A DNA stretch of 64,000 nt from a phage. Shown in pieces: positions 1,342-35,314 of this stretch (its first letter is position 1; every line of letters starts with the position of its first letter). The translations under genes were made by a program, and so were the position numbers. A model generated the notes under the pieces. That model was not told the origin of the DNA. It made no database searches and saw nothing but the letters and a program-made list of their open reading frames with translations. The stretch is taken from the sequence record PZ452595.1; one strand, 5' to 3'.

Positions 1342-2666
1342 TTGATTTCCTCTAAATCTTTAGTGTATTCAGTAACTACATCAGTAGTTTTCCAATATTC
1401 ATTTTCTTCTTTTTTAGCTTTAGCTTCTTCAGCAAGTTTCTTTGCTTCATCGGAAGTCATATGAAAAATATTCATTCCAACTAGTTTATCAACATAAGAA
1501 GAATACATATCGATTTTCGAAAGTTCTTCGGTCAGTTCTTTACGAGTTTTACCCTGCACAACAATTTCACCTGAAATTACTTTCTTAATGAAATGTGCCT
1601 TGGCAAAGGCTAAACGAAAAGCTGACTCAGTTTCTTTAATTTTGTTATCAATTCGTTTTTGGACATAAGTTTTACGAACTTCAACGAAGTCTTTAATTAA
1701 ATCAACCACGTTATCGTAAACTTGTAGTTTTCCTTTCTCATTAATAACCGTAATATTCTGAGAACGACGCTCAATCAACCCGAAGTCTTTCATAATTTTT
1801 GCATGGCGTTCTTCTTCGTTATCGCTCAAAGAGTATTCTTTGCGGAATTTAACTTTGAAGCCAAAACCATGCTCACCACAAGCATCATCCCATGTAATGA
1901 AGCCTTTATCTTCAAGTGGGTCTAAGATTTTACTCACGTAAGTTTCACGATCATACTTATACGGAATCTCAGTGATATGCATTTGAGTTCGTGAAGTAAA
2001 CTTATATGTTCCACGAATTTCATATTGCCCATCAATTTCAACGACTTCACCACGAAATTCTGGGAATTCTACCTTCGGTTTAGTTACTTTCTTTCCTTGA
2101 AGAGCTTGTAGTACAGCTTTCTTGACAGAAGAAACACTATGAGGAAGAATGTAAGTTGCATAACCAGTTGCAATACCGGAAACGCCATTAAGAAGAACAG
2201 TAGGAATAATAGGCAAATAGAAAGCAGGCGGAATGTGTTCTTTATCTTGATGTACTGGAGCATATTCAGTATCTTTATATACGTTATAGAAATTTTTACT
2301 TACACGAGCAAAAATATAACGACTTGCCGCTGCCTTTTGGACAGTACGAGAACCGAAGTTTCCTTGACCATCTAACAGAGGAAAGTTATTATTCCAAGTG
2401 TTAGCCATCAAAGCTCCCGCATCTTGCGCAGAGTTTTCGCCATGGTGATATCCAAGGTCCGCTACACCACCTGCAATAGAAGCGAGTTTGTGAAACTTAT
2501 CTTTATTTCCTCGTGCCAAATCAAGAGCTCGAGCAATAACAAATCGTTGAACTGGCTTAAATCCATCAATCATATTTGGAATGGCACGATTTTCAACCGT
2601 GTACATAGCATAAGCCAATGCTTCATTATCAATGATACTTTTTAAATCGCGATTATTCAGTTGCAT
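1338..2666 (-). CDS. 52: DNA topoisomerase II medium subunit gp52 (GyrA-like)
   Basis: 442 aa as in T4 gp52; position between motA and ndd. Confidence 0.9.
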   Translation of the reverse strand: MQLNNRDLKSIIDNEALAYAMYTVENRAIPNMIDGFKPVQRFVIARALDLARGNKDKFHKLASIAGGVADLGYHHGENSAQDAGALMANTWNNNFPLLDGQGNFGSRTVQKAAASRYIFARVSKNFYNVYKDTEYAPVHQDKEHIPPAFYLPIIPTVLLNGVSGIATGYATYILPHSVSSVKKAVLQALQGKKVTKPKVEFPEFRGEVVEIDGQYEIRGTYKFTSRTQMHITEIPYKYDRETYVSKILDPLEDKGFITWDDACGEHGFGFKVKFRKEYSLSDNEEERHAKIMKDFGLIERRSQNITVINEKGKLQVYDNVVDLIKDFVEVRKTYVQKRIDNKIKETESAFRLAFAKAHFIKKVISGEIVVQGKTRKELTEELSKIDMYSSYVDKLVGMNIFHMTSDEAKKLAEEAKAKKEENEYWKTTDVVTEYTKDLEEIK

Positions 2667-4049: not shown

Positions 4050-4268
4050 TCATTTTACACCGTTCCAAATTGTTTCAACCACAGATTTTAAACCATTTTG
4101 ATGAATATCAATTCCGACTACTGTCATCAAATAGATTCCAACTACAACTGAACCTAAGGCAAAAATCAGCATGAAAATGAATAAAGCCGGAAAAATATTA
4201 TCGAAAAACCATTCAATAAATGTAAAAGCACTGCGTTTACGCTTCATATTTTCCTCACATAAATCCAA
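4050..4268 (-). CDS. small membrane protein (72 aa)
   Basis: ORF track; long hydrophobic segment FPALFIFMLIFALGSVVVGIYLMTVVGI. Confidence 0.55.
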   Translation of the reverse strand: MDLCEENMKRKRSAFTFIEWFFDNIFPALFIFMLIFALGSVVVGIYLMTVVGIDIHQNGLKSVVETIWNGVK

Positions 4269-4368
4269 AGTAAACGTTTAATACATCAATCATTAAAACG
4301 ATTGGGAATATACTCAAAACTATTAGTATTATAACTACATTCCATATAGCTTTAACAATCTTTTTCAT
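4255..4368 (-). CDS. small membrane peptide (~37 aa)
   Basis: Internal ATG after conserved GGAGGAAC SD; track ORF (to 4464) is a read-through of the promoter cassette. Confidence 0.4.
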   Translation of the reverse strand: MKKIVKAIWNVVIILIVLSIFPIVLMIDVLNVYFGFM

Positions 4369-4396
4369 TTTCTGTTCCTCCGTAGTTGATAGGGTA

Positions 4397-29413: not shown

Positions 29414-30150
29414 TTCCACTCACCTTTATAGTCTTTTTTCACAATATGAGTTTCGCCAGTATTCCACCAATGATCAACCAAGTAAAAATGACGAGAATAT
29501 ACATGAAGACTTCCAACATTCCATATAATAGAACCTGCTTTATACTGACGAGTTGAATCGCCTGCATTCAAATCAGATACTAATTTATCTAATACGTATT
29601 TTTGCCATGCATAATCATTACGGAATCCGAAGACTACGTCATTTGAGCGCATGTTAACAACTGCATTGATTTTCTTGTCACGAATCAGGTATTGTACTGT
29701 ATTCGTACACATGAAATCTGACATACCATCTTTATTGTAGTCAAATTGCATAGATGGACGAGTATAAATCATGATACCACGTCGAGAATCAGGATTTTGA
29801 CCAAGTTCAGCTAAACACATATCATACTGAGCATAATTATCTTCTGACCAAATAGCCCAACCATAATTCGAGTTAATTTCACCTTTAGAAGATGCTACTT
29901 GTTGCCAAATCTTCGGTGTTTCACCCGGAATATCTTTAACGAACAAGCTCTTAGATTTATACCATTCAAGTTCACGCTGGATGTATTCATCATTAAGAGC
30001 GCCAAAAATAAACGGTTCATCTGCTACAAATGATGCGCCAATAATTTCAATAGTTTTAACGCCAGTTTTATCAACTACGAAATCTTTTTCTTTTAATGCA
30101 AGCCCCAAATGAAGACGGATTTCTTCAACTGTCATAGAGTCACTAATCAT
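29410..30150 (-). CDS. 42: gp42 dCMP hydroxymethylase
   Basis: 246 aa as T4 gp42; thymidylate-synthase-like with catalytic Cys in FMCTNT. Confidence 0.85.
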   Translation of the reverse strand: MISDSMTVEEIRLHLGLALKEKDFVVDKTGVKTIEIIGASFVADEPFIFGALNDEYIQRELEWYKSKSLFVKDIPGETPKIWQQVASSKGEINSNYGWAIWSEDNYAQYDMCLAELGQNPDSRRGIMIYTRPSMQFDYNKDGMSDFMCTNTVQYLIRDKKINAVVNMRSNDVVFGFRNDYAWQKYVLDKLVSDLNAGDSTRQYKAGSIIWNVGSLHVYSRHFYLVDHWWNTGETHIVKKDYKGEWK

Positions 30151-30303
30151 TTAAACCTCAATTGATACATTCATATTTAACTTGTAACAGTAATAAACTC
30201 CAACCTAAAATAATAGTTGGAATCATAAGAGGAACCGTTACACTATAGTATATACTTATTATAACCATCAAGATTAAAAGCAACACTGCTATAATTTTGC
30301 TTT

Positions 30304-30555
30304 TCATTCCTTCTCTCTGATGATAATTACTTGATTTGGCTGTGCAGACTTTTTAGTTTCACCCGCAATTGACCAAATAAATGTAATAAACCAACCAATA
30401 ATTGACCAGTTAAACAGCAAAGATGTGAAAAAGATTCCTACTGTCGATTTTGACCCACGCATCAAGGCGATGAACCATGGAAGCATGTATATAATAATAG
30501 CCAACACGCCTGAAACTAAAACCATAAAAATTGAACCTGTTACTAAAGTTTCCAT
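30304..30555 (-). CDS. imm: Imm, superinfection immunity membrane protein
   Basis: 83 aa, two TM segments, as T4 Imm. Confidence 0.8.
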   Translation of the reverse strand: METLVTGSIFMVLVSGVLAIIIYMLPWFIALMRGSKSTVGIFFTSLLFNWSIIGWFITFIWSIAGETKKSAQPNQVIIIREKE

Positions 30556-30955: not shown

Positions 30956-31207
30956 TTAAAACTTAACAAATAACTTTAAAGCATCTTCAGTTTTAATTCC
31001 TTTTCTTACACCCATAACAGAAATTGGCTGTGACTGAAATTTTCCTTTACCATTATAAATTTCTAATCCAGTCACCATTCCATTTTGTTCTATAATACCG
31101 TAAGTGTTACCTTCATTTTCAAATTCTTTAACTTTAAAGAGTTTATTAGCTTTTTCTGCATTAACAACTTTTAAATTTTGAATAAAATTAGTTTGAATAT
31201 TTTTCAT
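30956..31207 (-). CDS. hypothetical protein (83 aa)
   Basis: ORF track; conserved early promoter + SD cassette upstream. Confidence 0.55.
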   Translation of the reverse strand: MKNIQTNFIQNLKVVNAEKANKLFKVKEFENEGNTYGIIEQNGMVTGLEIYNGKGKFQSQPISVMGVRKGIKTEDALKLFVKF

Positions 31208-31352: not shown

Positions 31353-31370
31353 AGGGACCCGGAGGTCCCT
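31353..31370 (-). terminator. tetraloop hairpin after gene 43
   Basis: agggacccggaggtccct; loop UCCG on minus strand. Confidence 0.55.
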
Positions 31371-31382
31371 AGATTTATTCTA

Positions 31383-34079
31383 TCAGCCAAACAGGAAGTC
31401 TAACGAAGCTTTTTCTTCATAGTCCATACCAGCCGATTCACACATACCCGCAAGCGGTTTAACAAACGATTTTTGGAACAAAGTTGAGTAGTCAATCCAA
31501 GACAGTACATCAGAACGAATTTCTTTTGGAAGTTCTGTGCCCGACGGCCAAGCAATGCACTTGTCACCAAATGGATTTCCTTCACGCAATGGAAGAACCA
31601 TTACCTTATTTCCATCCAAAATTGGAGCTACACCCAGACCACTAACAGCTCGACGATAAGTTAGCACACCACGAATATGGAACGGGCATTTAAATCCTGG
31701 CCAACCTTTATCATCATATTTCGCTATATCGTTCGCAGTTTTTACTTCAGCAATAACTTTATAGTCAAGTTGACGATATTCTTTCTCGAAGTTCTTGTAA
31801 TATTCTTGGACAGACTCTTCGCCTTCCTGAAGAATACGACGAATACTTTCTTCGAGAGCTTCTTGCACTGCTTTTGGTGTTGAGCTCTGCTGAGTTTCCA
31901 TACCCATGATTTTTAGATGTGGTTCAGCAAATCGCTTATCTTCCATATCATAAACGTTCAGAGCATAACGCTTTTTCGCTTTCCAAAATCCACCGACGCC
32001 CTTTGAACCAAGCGGAGGGCAAGAAATAGCTTCACGGTCCATATGCATCAGATGCTCGCGGTTATTCATATAATCACATAACTCACGATATGCAACATCA
32101 ATCATAGGTTCCATCTTTTTCTTACCGAACTGATTCATGAATTCAACTAAATCGTTCTGCTCTTTGAATCGGTCAAGACCAACTTTTTCAATAACTTTAT
32201 CTACGCAAACATATACCGAATCAGTATCACCTGCCGCGATGAAATCTTCACCATTAGTTCCGCATACTTTATTCAGATATTCATTAATTTTACGAGCAAT
32301 CCACTGAATACCAACTTGGCCGAAAATTGTGATAGCAGTAGCATTTCGCAAATCATAGTAACGGAAATGAATATTACCAAGAGCACCATAAAGACTGTTA
32401 ATAAGAATTTTACGGTTCAGCTGATTTGTGTTAGCAAGTGTAGCTGCTTTTTCACATTCCTCAATCAGACTATTGAGAACAGATTCAGTATAATTCGATA
32501 GTTCATTTAAGAAATCATCACTGAACTTAACATATCGTTCAACTTCTGGTTTAGTTGAACAGGACCCTGCGCCTTTCATAATAATCTTTTTAATAGCTTC
32601 GGCATTCATTTCTTCAGCGAACATTTTCTTTTTCCAATCTTTACGCTGGAAAAATACTTTAGCGATTTCCTTTGGAATGATACCTTCTTGATGCTTATCA
32701 TACATCCATCCATTCGGAGAACAAGAATATTCATCACTTGGTTTAGGAGCTGTTCCTGCGATATATTCATGAATTGGATGAACTTTAAACTGTCCACGAA
32801 TAGTCTCAGGACTAATGTTAACCTGACGAATAATGCTCGGATACAGAGACGTCAAGTCAAAACTCATAATATATCGACGAGCAATTGGTTTAGGTTCAAA
32901 CACAAATGCACCCGGAAAACTCTGTTTAACGTGCGAACCTTGTTGAGGAATAACCTTATGTTCACCTTTCAATGAGTTAAAAATAATAGCATCCCAAGTT
33001 TTAATAGGACTCATTACACCAGAAAAAGGCATTTTAGCGTAATAAGACATACTTAAAACTAGATCGATAAACCCGCGAATTTTATCAATTGCTTGAACTG
33101 ATTCTACGTCAATGATGTTATAACTAATGTATCGTTGATGATTAGTCTCACGAAGTTTATTAATAGGACCGTCGTATGGTAATTTACCTTTTTTGGTTTC
33201 ATGTTGAGCAACTGATTCCAAAGAGAATGACGGCAAATTAGTAAAAGCGAATTTCTTGTACAAATCTAAATAATCAAGAATAGATACGCCATCAATAGAA
33301 TAAATTTCTTTGCTACCGTACATATTTTGAATTAGTTTAGATTTTACCCGACCGATTGGAGAGAAACGTTTCATACTGCGTTCACCTAGAATCATTTTAA
33401 CGCGATTCATAATATATGGAACGTCAAACCCCTCAATATTCCAACCAGTAAAAATAGCAGGTCGTTTCTGTTCCCAGAGATTGATATATTCCATGAGCAT
33501 ATCACGCTCATTATCGAATGGCATATAAATTACTCGGTCAAGAATTTCTTGAGGAACTTCATCACCACCTTCACAGTCAAGCTTAGCAGCTAACTTTGCA
33601 TCCCATTTTGATACTGAACCGTACATTGAATTCAACAAATCAAAGACATAAAAACGGTCATCAATTGAATCGTAATGAGTGATAGCATCAATTTCATATT
33701 CTGCTTTCATTGGGTCAGGAAATTTATCACCAGTAACCTCAATGTCACAGTTAGCTACACGAACAAATTTTCGGTCATAAACAATTTCTGAACCATATGT
33801 ATCACTGATATAAGCGAGTTTAAAATCGTTCATACCGAGAGCTTCGAGACCGATGTCTTCCATTCGCTTCATCCAATCTCGAGCATCTTTCATTGATGGA
33901 AATTTTTGAGGAGCACAGTTTTTACCATAGATGTCTTTGTATTTTGACTCTTCCTTACAATGCCTAAACATAGTCGGAAGATATTCTACTTCACGGGTAC
34001 GTTCCTTTCCATTTTCATCAATATAACGTTCAACAATGTTATTTCCGACTGTTTCAATAGAGATATAAAATTCTTTCAT
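31383..34079 (-). CDS. 43: gp43 DNA polymerase (family B)
   Basis: 898 aa as T4 gp43; exonuclease and polymerase motifs (YGDTDS). Confidence 0.95.
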   Translation of the reverse strand: MKEFYISIETVGNNIVERYIDENGKERTREVEYLPTMFRHCKEESKYKDIYGKNCAPQKFPSMKDARDWMKRMEDIGLEALGMNDFKLAYISDTYGSEIVYDRKFVRVANCDIEVTGDKFPDPMKAEYEIDAITHYDSIDDRFYVFDLLNSMYGSVSKWDAKLAAKLDCEGGDEVPQEILDRVIYMPFDNERDMLMEYINLWEQKRPAIFTGWNIEGFDVPYIMNRVKMILGERSMKRFSPIGRVKSKLIQNMYGSKEIYSIDGVSILDYLDLYKKFAFTNLPSFSLESVAQHETKKGKLPYDGPINKLRETNHQRYISYNIIDVESVQAIDKIRGFIDLVLSMSYYAKMPFSGVMSPIKTWDAIIFNSLKGEHKVIPQQGSHVKQSFPGAFVFEPKPIARRYIMSFDLTSLYPSIIRQVNISPETIRGQFKVHPIHEYIAGTAPKPSDEYSCSPNGWMYDKHQEGIIPKEIAKVFFQRKDWKKKMFAEEMNAEAIKKIIMKGAGSCSTKPEVERYVKFSDDFLNELSNYTESVLNSLIEECEKAATLANTNQLNRKILINSLYGALGNIHFRYYDLRNATAITIFGQVGIQWIARKINEYLNKVCGTNGEDFIAAGDTDSVYVCVDKVIEKVGLDRFKEQNDLVEFMNQFGKKKMEPMIDVAYRELCDYMNNREHLMHMDREAISCPPLGSKGVGGFWKAKKRYALNVYDMEDKRFAEPHLKIMGMETQQSSTPKAVQEALEESIRRILQEGEESVQEYYKNFEKEYRQLDYKVIAEVKTANDIAKYDDKGWPGFKCPFHIRGVLTYRRAVSGLGVAPILDGNKVMVLPLREGNPFGDKCIAWPSGTELPKEIRSDVLSWIDYSTLFQKSFVKPLAGMCESAGMDYEEKASLDFLFG

Positions 34080-34096
34080 AGATATTCCTTAGTTTA

Positions 34097-34116
34097 TAGC
34101 CCGAGTTATTAGGCTC
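34097..34116 (-). promoter_or_regulatory. gene 43 translational operator hairpin (autogenous repression by gp43)
   Basis: Minus-strand RNA GAGCCUAAUAACUCGGGCU just 5' of gene 43 SD; loop AAUAACUC is the wild-type T4 operator loop as I recall. Confidence 0.65.
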
Positions 34117-34137
34117 TTGATATATTATACTCCAAAT

Positions 34138-34155
34138 AAGGGGCCGAAGCCCCTT
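34138..34155 (-). terminator. UUCG-tetraloop hairpin between regA operon and gene 43
   Basis: aaggggccgaagcccctt. Confidence 0.55.
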
Positions 34156-34157
34156 GC

Positions 34158-34379
34158 TTAAATTAGTACTATTTGTCGGTGAAAAATTGTCATTCCATCT
34201 GCATTAATTGACTTAACGACTGCGGTAAAGTGTTTTTGTTCTGGATGAATTAATTTTTGAAATTCTACCTGAAATTTTAGTTGAAGGTTTTCTGGTAAAT
34301 CAAAAAGTGTTTCTGTTGCAGAAAGATTATATTTTTCTTTAAGAGACGCCATGTATTCTTGTGGAGTTATAGCAGTCAT
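34158..34379 (-). CDS. hypothetical protein (~73 aa) between regA and 43
   Basis: ATG 1 nt after regA stop; track ORF extends to 34421; followed by UUCG hairpin. Confidence 0.5.
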   Translation of the reverse strand: MTAITPQEYMASLKEKYNLSATETLFDLPENLQLKFQVEFQKLIHPEQKHFTAVVKSINADGMTIFHRQIVLI

Positions 34380-34380
34380 A

Positions 34381-34749
34381 TTAATTACCAATCGTATATT
34401 TAGGAACGAGTTTCCATTCATGCTTTTGTTTAAAAGAAATAACTCGGAAGTTATTAGTTAAATCTTTCATAAAAGTTCTTTGACCAGGAACGATTTCAAT
34501 CAGTCCCCAATCTTCTAACAACCATGCAATCGAATCACGACGAACTTCATCTTCTTCTGTCATTTCAACTTGGCGACCATCCATACGAAGCATTTCTTTA
34601 AAATGAACGATATAGTATAGTCCTTTTTTCTGAAGAATATGACAGGACTGATACAGAACTTTATCTTTATTATTAGCAATTCCCATACGAGTCAAAGTTT
34701 CTTTTACTTTCAGAAAATCTTCAGGTTTTTTAAGAGTAATTTCAATCAT
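34381..34749 (-). CDS. regA: RegA translational repressor
   Basis: 122 aa as T4 RegA. Confidence 0.85.
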   Translation of the reverse strand: MIEITLKKPEDFLKVKETLTRMGIANNKDKVLYQSCHILQKKGLYYIVHFKEMLRMDGRQVEMTEEDEVRRDSIAWLLEDWGLIEIVPGQRTFMKDLTNNFRVISFKQKHEWKLVPKYTIGN

Positions 34750-34750
34750 T

Positions 34751-35314
34751 TTACCATTCCAATGCTAGTTTTTTGAGTTGTTTCTGTTCTTTTACGTTCT
34801 TAGTCACTTCTTTCAAAAAATCATCCGTGACTAAACCTTTTAGTTCTTTTAATACTAAAGGAAGTTTTCCATTTTTAGTAAGAATTGATTTATAGTTAAT
34901 TGCATCATTTGTATTAACTTGATACCGTTTAGCAAGTAACTTAATAATCAATACTTCGGTGGAATCTTCAACCAGTTTTGCCCATTTACCGTATCTTTTA
35001 CCACGAGGAACAGCAGCCATTAGATAATTAAAATGAGCTTCATCACTTAATCCAGAACCGATTAAATTCATTGCATATACAGCTGGCATGCACTCCGGAA
35101 ATTGTGATAATGCATTTTCGACCATGAATTTTGAATAATCTTTTTGAGCAATAGAGCATTTAGTTTTATTATTGATAGCTCCAATTATTTCAAAAAATTC
35201 ATTTTCAGCTTTTTCTTTAAAAGAATCAGCAGCGGATTGGACAGCTGTCCAATCTTTTGAATACCAAGCAATCTGATGCTCGTTTAATTGAATATCATCT
35301 TCAAATAAGCTCAT
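34751..35314 (-). CDS. 62: gp62 clamp-loader subunit
   Basis: 187 aa as T4 gp62. Confidence 0.85.

Follow-up and report, generated by a model that had tools for sequence, protein, structure and literature searches.

An unchanged T4-type gene 43 operator downstream of the accessory gene ORF43.1 in the regA-43 interval of a T4-like phage

Introduction

Does the short interval upstream of the DNA polymerase gene of a T4-like phage still carry the translational operator known from T4 when an additional open reading frame (ORF) lies in front of it, and is this frame a real gene? These questions are raised by a 64,000-nucleotide stretch of phage DNA (sequence record PZ452595.1, hereafter the window), for which an original prediction, made from the letters alone, proposed a gene 43 operator of the T4 kind immediately 5' of gene 43 and an extra small ORF between regA and gene 43. 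The footprint of the T4 operator is reportedly the work of Andrake et al. (1988), and the SELEX study is said to be that of Tuerk and Gold (1990). The operator consists of an 18-base hairpin-loop 5' of the gene 43 start and of sequence overlapping the ribosome-binding site, its binding by the polymerase (gp43) represses the translation of gp43 itself, and the -UAAC- bases of the loop dominated the first RNA SELEX experiment, which was done with gp43 (PMC3014915).

Both parts of the locus are already known, namely a textbook operator and a catalogued ORF, and the prediction was correct in proposing them. It is very likely that positions 34080..34157 of the window represent the unaltered regA-43 cassette of T4, with a real gene of the PF25760 family, ORF43.1, placed between the regA stop and this cassette. 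Beyond correct annotation this matters little; few translational operators are characterised as well as this one, and it is unaltered in the window.

Locus Layout and Source Phage

The window comes from a T4-like phage (Tequatrovirus). The interval matched 505 phage records in a megablast search, nearly all of which belong to Tequatrovirus or to unclassified T4-like phages. The gene order on the minus strand is gene 62, regA, a 73-aa ORF, a 78-nt intergenic region and gene 43, with the following features:

34381..34749, minus strand: regA, translational repressor of 122 aa (Pfam PF01818, E 1.2e-74); protein identical to T4 RegA
34158..34379, minus strand: ORF43.1, accessory gene of 73 aa (Pfam PF25760; phrog_3826), not in T4
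34080..34157, minus strand: intergenic region of 78 nt between the 73-aa ORF and gene 43
31383..34079, minus strand: gene 43, DNA polymerase of 898 aa, with its AUG at 34079; at once the repressor and the regulated gene

The polymerase is 99.8% identical to T4 gp43 (896 of 898 residues, i.e., two amino acid differences). In T4 (NC_000866), 78 nt without an intervening gene separate the end of regA at 29972 from the start of gene 43 at 29893, in agreement with the original prediction, which called the small ORF an extra one. Alignment of the regA-43 interval with T4, which had been suggested as a check, showed that 34080..34157 is 100% identical over 78 nt to the T4 intergenic region and that the ORF is missing from T4.

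The Gene 43 Operator

The operator and the translation signals of gene 43 are arranged within the intergenic region as follows:

34098..34115, minus strand: operator hairpin of 18 nt, AGCCU[AAUAACUC]GGGCU (T4 identity, MFE and centroid fold, covariation)
34080..34097, minus strand: 3' part of the operator and ribosome-binding site, AUAAACU-AAGGA-AUAUCU (read from the sequence; according to the review, the operator overlaps the ribosome-binding site)
34086..34090, minus strand: Shine-Dalgarno (SD) sequence AAGGA of gene 43 (annotated in X00769)

Relative to the gene 43 AUG, the hairpin occupies -36 to -19 and the SD sequence -11 to -7. A 5-bp stem (pairs A-U, G-C, C-G, C-G and U.G, between AGCCU and GGGCU) with an 8-nt loop was obtained by ViennaRNA in both the MFE and the centroid structure, in which the UUCG hairpin described below was also present, and the operator hairpin alone folds at -5.2 kcal/mol. 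The loop AAUAACUC had been named correctly as that of the T4 polymerase operator. The only error of the original prediction concerned the stem, drawn as GAGCC-UAAUAACUC-GGGCU, which is displaced by one base so that its arms would not pair; the true stem is AGCCU/GGGCU. The 18-mer is found once in the window even when two mismatches are allowed, with 0.00 copies expected from 100 shuffles. Because the fold of the whole 121-nt stretch is unremarkable (z-score -1.08), the evidence for the two hairpins is identity with T4 together with covariation, and not energy. As the intergenic region is base-for-base identical to that of NC_000866, the hairpin is the wild-type T4 operator. A search of 33800..34800 against Rfam at a permissive E-value gave chance-level matches only, and Rfam has no family for the gene 43 operator. 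Transfer from T4, on the strength of the identical operator and of the 896 shared residues among the 898 of gp43, suggests that gp43 would bind this operator and repress gene 43 in the window phage as well.

A broader view of the operator was provided by 80 regA loci from IMG/VR, 43 of which have gene 43 no more than 1.2 kb downstream. A hairpin with the loop motif is located just 5' of the gene 43 SD sequence in 42 of these 43 loci; the lone exception is locus L047, where an HNH endonuclease fills the regA-43 slot and no operator loop motif was found 5' of gene 43. Nineteen distinct versions of the hairpin were distinguished, with the loop AAU[A/C/U]ACU[C/U/G] and with stems of either 5 bp (T4 type) or 4 bp, e.g., AGAC[AAUCACUC]GUCU in JS98-like phages. 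In a gapless alignment of the 19 versions, standard pairs filled 87.4% of cells versus 58.3% after shuffling, a level of pairing that none of 500 shuffles reached, and sliding the 3' partners by 1-3 columns left 24-46% of cells paired. Compensatory changes, with both partners altered, were seen in four of the five stem pairs. The "major variant" loop from SELEX was present in none of the 19 versions, and a direct pattern search for this loop (AGCAACCU) together with T4-like downstream sequence had no match in IMG/VR.

The UUCG Hairpin and the Gene 43 Promoter

A second hairpin and the promoter elements of gene 43 lie between the ORF and the operator:

34138..34155, minus strand: hairpin AAGGGGC[UUCG]GCCCCUU, followed by AUUUGG (fold of -12.1 kcal/mol alone; in MFE and centroid structures)
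34124..34129, minus strand: -10 element TATAAT of the gene 43 promoter ("-10 region (g43)" in the original T4 record X00769)
34145..34151, minus strand: GGCTTCG, putative partial MotA-box-like element at about -30, inside the hairpin

The hairpin begins 2 nt past the ORF43.1 stop, in agreement with the UUCG hairpin that had been predicted to follow the ORF. Its loop is closed by a C-G pair on a GC-rich stem (GGGGC-UUCG-GCCCC), which is the arrangement of the extra-stable C(UUCG)G tetraloop. Hairpins of this kind in T4 intercistronic regions were reportedly described as exceptionally stable RNA structures by Tuerk et al. in 1988. Among relatives, the two stem arms change together (GGGGC/GCCCC, GGGAC/GUCCC, GGGCC/GGCCC and GGAGCC/GGCUCC), and the loops are all stable tetraloops (UUCG, UACG, GAAA and UCCG). 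The general layout, consisting of a stop codon, a GC-rich tetraloop hairpin, (G)GAGTATAAT, 0-20 nt, the operator and the SD sequence, is kept across genera. The tail of the hairpin in the window, UUAUUUGG, is an interrupted U tract, which explains why a simple terminator scan did not call it; in the record of phage R5505 the hairpin is annotated as a terminator (ARNOLD). It is probably a terminator or a 3'-end stabiliser for 45-44-62-regA(-43.1) transcripts.

The -10 element is contained in GGAGTATAAT, the sequence between the two hairpins, which is kept in most relatives. Middle promoters have a MotA box (consensus about TGCTTtA, centred near -30) and a sigma-70-type -10 element, without a -35 element. 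A sigma-70 promoter scan found no -35 element and did not call the gene 43 promoter, and the missing -35 element is consistent with a MotA-type middle promoter. The match to the MotA box comprises GCTT only (gGCTTcg at about -34..-28) and lies inside the UUCG hairpin. In the record of phage fPS-90, GCTTCGG..TATAAT is annotated as a "predicted middle promoter", and a clearer TGCTAT is found at MotA-box distance in more distant relatives. Transcription of gene 43 would start near 34117, at the foot of the operator hairpin, and the operator would then be situated at the very 5' end of the mRNA made from this promoter. Work by Hsu and Karam (1990) and Guild et al. (1988) is said to support both the ending or stabilising of upstream transcripts at the hairpin and the start at the gene 43 promoter.

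ORF43.1 Is a Protein-Coding Gene

ORF43.1 extends from 34379 to 34158 (73 codons plus UAA), and its ATG is located one base past the regA stop (UAA-U-AUG), just as the frame of about 73 aa adjoining the regA stop had been described. The homologue search that had been proposed for it led to a known family, annotated as ORF43.1 in many relatives. Its residues 5-73 match Pfam PF25760, "Phage RB18 ORF43.1 protein", with 105.9 bits against a gathering cutoff of 27 (E 9.6e-31), and it belongs to phrog_3826 in PHROGs, a family of unknown function. In GenBank it appears under the names "ORF43.1", "similar to RB18 43.1" and RB32ORF047c.

ORF43.1 is under purifying selection and is a real protein-coding gene, as judged from its dN/dS, the conservation of its frame and residues, a confident structural model and its start-stop arrangement with regA. 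Pairwise dN/dS among allele 1 and an intermediate relative is about 0.1-0.28, based on at most 26 synonymous differences per pair. The frame is intact across 28 cluster representatives, in which the motifs FDLxE..Q..FQ and a C-terminal EI are kept; K14, Y17, L19, F26-D27-L28 and E30 are invariant, and Q33, F36-Q37, P46, G62, R68 and the C-terminal E-I nearly so. The AlphaFold2 model is confident (pLDDT 89.9) and predicts a helix at residues 6-16, a helix at 30-44 and a beta-hairpin formed by 50-58 and 64-72. ORF43.1 has no strong SD sequence of its own, and in most relatives its start codon directly adjoins the regA stop or overlaps it, an arrangement that points to translational coupling; the allele of RB51 starts 10 nt downstream of the regA stop, behind an SD-like AAGG of its own.

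A mechanical ORF in the same frame is longer (34158..34421, 87 aa), due to an upstream in-frame ATG within regA, and extended versions are also found in public data, with 87 aa in phage Solly, 85 aa in clusters P0007, P0011 and P0016, and 127 aa in P0005. Since it runs through regA in a different frame and its protein sequence is not conserved, the N-terminal extension (34380..34421, minus strand) is probably an annotation artefact. The initiation region of ORF43.1 (34370..34400, minus strand; GGUAAUUAAUAUGACU) is AU-rich and contains an upstream UAA. A context of this type can contribute to recognition by RegA (PMC3014915), and, judging from these bases, ORF43.1 might itself be a RegA target.

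Occupancy of the regA-43 Slot

The difference between the window and T4 is confined to one segment:

34158..34380, minus strand: 223 bp present in the window and missing in T4, with TTAA on both sides (T4 alignment)

At this place, T4 reads GGTAATTAA directly followed by GCAAGGGG, and the window reads GGTAATTAA-TATG...CTAATTTAA followed by GCAAGGGG. Owing to the TTAA boundaries of the indel, the ORF43.1 stop takes the exact place of the T4 regA stop before GCAAGGGG.

Among about 500 close relatives, allele 1, the type found in the window, was present in 178 records at 80% or more protein identity, all but one of them at 90% or more. Allele 2 (e.g., in RB51 and slur07) has 78 aa and is about 45% identical to allele 1, and the slot is empty in about half of the relatives, T4 included. 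An evenly spaced sample of 30 records contained 16 empty slots, 10 copies of allele 1, 3 of allele 2 and 1 partial match. PF25760 occupies the regA-43 slot in at least four genera of Tevenvirinae: Tequatrovirus, Dhakavirus (JS98), Moonvirus (CF1) and Kanagawavirus (IME523). Some slot ORFs from IMG/VR, although more divergent, scored above the Pfam cutoff and had an hhalign probability of 82% against the main alignment; 53-aa slot ORFs (L052 and L053b) reached a probability of only 8% against the family profile, too low to support homology. Full and empty slots sharing the downstream cassette were seen in the locus pairs L026/L027, L033/L034, L043/L044 and L045/L048. The regA-43 junction thus represents a recurrent presence/absence slot for one small family and offers a clean natural knockout series for ORF43.1.

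Several loci have unusual contents. In L047, a 238-aa HNH-type endonuclease ORF (1603..2319) takes the slot instead of a PF25760 gene; L053 has two tandem ORFs (1567..1929), one of 66 aa resembling PF25760 and one of 53 aa; and L040 retains a 38-aa copy of a JS98-type ORF43.1 (1565..1681), internally deleted in frame.

The alleles of Tequatrovirus, about 45% identical between flanks that are 98-100% identical, imply ongoing horizontal replacement. The dS of ORF43.1 is about 0.18-0.22 against RB32 and Solly, and the flanking regA and gene 43 show about 2% nucleotide divergence, the latter figure being measured from T4. This gap between the dS and the flanks, bearing in mind that the flanks were compared with T4, suggests mosaic exchange of the ORF43.1 cassette.

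Possible Function of ORF43.1

Structure and sequence comparisons gave few clues. With the ORF43.1 model as query, Foldseek matched nothing in BFVD apart from uncharacterised proteins of the same family. A sequence profile search of the PDB yielded no hit with E below 0.3, NCBIfam had no match, and nothing relevant was found in the literature on ORF43.1 or RB18 43.1. Two very large protein searches yielded about 31 PF25760 clusters at 90% identity and about 8 at 50%; their members are of about the same size, and those that are named or whose contigs were read come from T4-like phages. A HMMER search of 1.84 billion representatives had 10 matches at E <= 0.001, 8 of which were true family clusters. 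The match to P0032 (3009 aa) was dismissed as a tandem-repeat artefact, and P0036, an EF-hand repeat protein with a weak summed match (E 8e-4 over 5 repeats), was also rejected.

Our guess, made with low confidence, is that ORF43.1 acts as an accessory factor that binds protein, is small and dispensable, and is expressed together with the replication genes. A more specific idea, which we regard as quite unlikely, is that PF25760 proteins take part, as an optional third component, in translational control by RegA and gp43 or in the replisome, either as an adaptor or as an anti-defence factor. An adaptor would bind RegA, gp43 or the clamp via the invariant FDLxE...Q..FQ surface, and for an anti-defence factor the quick turnover of alleles would reflect an arms race. 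Either role, if true, would explain the coupling to regA as well as the divergence of the alleles between their highly similar flanks.

Other Features around Gene 43

Several features near gene 43 were observed in addition:

30956..31207, minus strand: 83-aa ORF (phrog_18567; no Pfam or NCBIfam match) between gene 43 and imm.1, missing in T4
30158..30307, minus strand: 49-aa, very hydrophobic ORF (phrog_3610) between gene 42 and imm
31354..31369, minus strand: second tetraloop hairpin, GGGACC[UCCG]GGUCCC, followed by UUUUU, directly past the gene 43 stop

The 83-aa ORF sits just past an early-type promoter (GTTTACA...TACTAT) that is shared with T4, where the promoter runs straight into imm.1. 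With ORF43.1 on the other side, gene 43 thus lies between two small ORFs that T4 does not have. T4 has an intact copy of the 49-aa ORF with about 94% identity (locus L001, about 4221..4373), which is unannotated in NC_000866. The hairpin past gene 43 looks from its bases like a clean intrinsic terminator, and its T4 counterpart is slightly different (GGACC[UCCA]GGUCC).

Discussion

The following picture of the locus is proposed. The C(UUCG)G hairpin would end or stabilise the upstream 45-44-62-regA transcripts and at the same time overlap a MotA-type middle promoter that has no -35 element and uses TATAAT as its -10 element; transcripts from this promoter would begin at the foot of the 18-nt operator hairpin. 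Free gp43 would bind this hairpin and the adjoining sequence down to the SD sequence AAGGA, block the binding of the 30S subunit and in this way repress its own translation, and polymerase engaged on DNA would not repress. As the final cistron on the regA message, ORF43.1 would be translated by ribosomes that terminate and reinitiate at UAA-U-AUG. The gene may have resided in the regA-43 slot of Tevenvirinae for a long time as a dispensable element, which T4 and roughly half of the phages close to it would have lost by a precise deletion between TTAA repeats. Because the ORF43.1 stop lies at the position of the T4 regA stop, the cassette downstream is untouched.

Other readings of individual parts of the locus have to be weighed against this picture. 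An operator-like hairpin that has been kept while autoregulation is no longer in use in the window phage is extremely improbable, considering that the operator is identical to that of T4 and that gp43 differs at only 2 of 898 residues. It is also highly improbable that the 73-aa ORF is a chance or decaying frame that is not made into a functional protein: the frame has no recognisable SD sequence and no known function and is dispensable, being missing from T4 and many relatives, but a dN/dS of 0.11-0.28 (with at most 26 synonymous differences in a pair), the frame and motifs preserved in all 28 cluster representatives, a curated Pfam family, the pLDDT of 89.9 and the conserved start-stop coupling to regA all speak against it. 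Another reading is a UUCG hairpin that acts mainly as a barrier to 3' exonucleases, as a processing element or as a feature of the middle promoter, with mostly read-through into gene 43. The weak, interrupted U tract and the lack of a terminator call in the consensus scan fit such a role, as do the position of the -30 region within the hairpin and the exceptional stability for which C(UUCG)G hairpins are reportedly known. This reading is nevertheless somewhat unlikely in view of the ARNOLD terminator call in the R5505 record and of the hairpins of relatives, which are always GC-rich and followed by U-rich sequence; the roles can, moreover, coexist.

The history of ORF43.1 is a further point on which two explanations compete. 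We favour an old gene that has been lost repeatedly, with the loss in T4 occurring by deletion between TTAA repeats, since the same slot is occupied in several genera; in the window phage, ORF43.1 would then be an ancestral possession. Its recent gain as a mobile element, i.e., a moron-like or homing-endonuclease-associated cassette and not an ancestral gene lost by T4, appears unlikely. Such a gain would fit the plasticity of the slot, which within single genera may be empty or hold one ORF, two ORFs (L053) or the 238-aa HNH endonuclease (L047). It would also fit the low identity of the Tequatrovirus alleles (about 45%) compared with regA, the intergenic region and gene 43 (98-100%), as well as the literature on the plastic g43 locus and ORF shuffling by promoter/stem-loop elements (PMC2839356). 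On the other hand, in at least four genera members of the family lie in this slot, coupled to regA in the same way and followed by the same hairpin, ORF43.1 has no promoter, terminator or endonuclease of its own, and both boundaries of the indel fall exactly at stop codons, as a TTAA-repeat deletion would give.

Comparison with Known Systems

With respect to family PF25760 (RB18 ORF43.1, RB32ORF047c and JS98 orf47), the ORF in the window is a full-length match of the same size in the same position between regA and gene 43, and no difference was seen; it is a typical allele 1 member and shares 93-100% identity with its counterparts from 178 GenBank phages.

In T4-type genomes, the g43 locus is plastic, and cassettes combining a promoter and a stem-loop (PeSLs) mediate the shuffling of ORFs (Arbiol et al. 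2010, PMC2839356). The window resembles these in that, within the plastic g43 locus, a GGGG...CCCC-type stem-loop and a promoter are joined at the edge of an ORF that is present in some genomes and absent from others. However, a PeSL contains a strong sigma-70-like early promoter with both -35 and -10 elements, whereas the promoter in the window lacks a -35 element and is probably of the middle type, and PeSLs flank an ORF on both sides, whereas ORF43.1 has its cassette at the 3' end alone and is bounded on the 5' side by the regA stop. On both counts the structure departs from a PeSL. Recombination between two PeSLs does not explain the indel either, as the cassette is one-sided and the boundaries are 4-bp TTAA repeats.

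The closest known counterpart is the T4 gene 43 operator itself, to which the whole 78 nt are identical, including the hairpin, the loop AAUAACUC, the SD spacing and the AUG. The difference concerns the upstream context only, in that the cistron ending 2 nt before the UUCG hairpin is ORF43.1 in the window and regA in T4. For the operators of RB69 and RB49, the source papers are reportedly those of Petrov and Karam from 2002 and 2004. These gene 43 operators are covered by the same review as that of T4, and the RB69-type hairpin is shorter, with 16 bases (PMC3014915). They share the position and the loop core AAUxACUC with the operator in the window, and the 16-base hairpin fits the relatives with a 4-bp stem, AGAC[AAU(A/C/U)ACUC]GUCU. 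In contrast to the RB69 type, the window has the 5-bp stem of T4, and its relatives show compensatory stem changes and A, C or U at loop position 4. The comparative record of this operator is extended to 19 natural variants, in which loop position 4 tolerates A, C or U.
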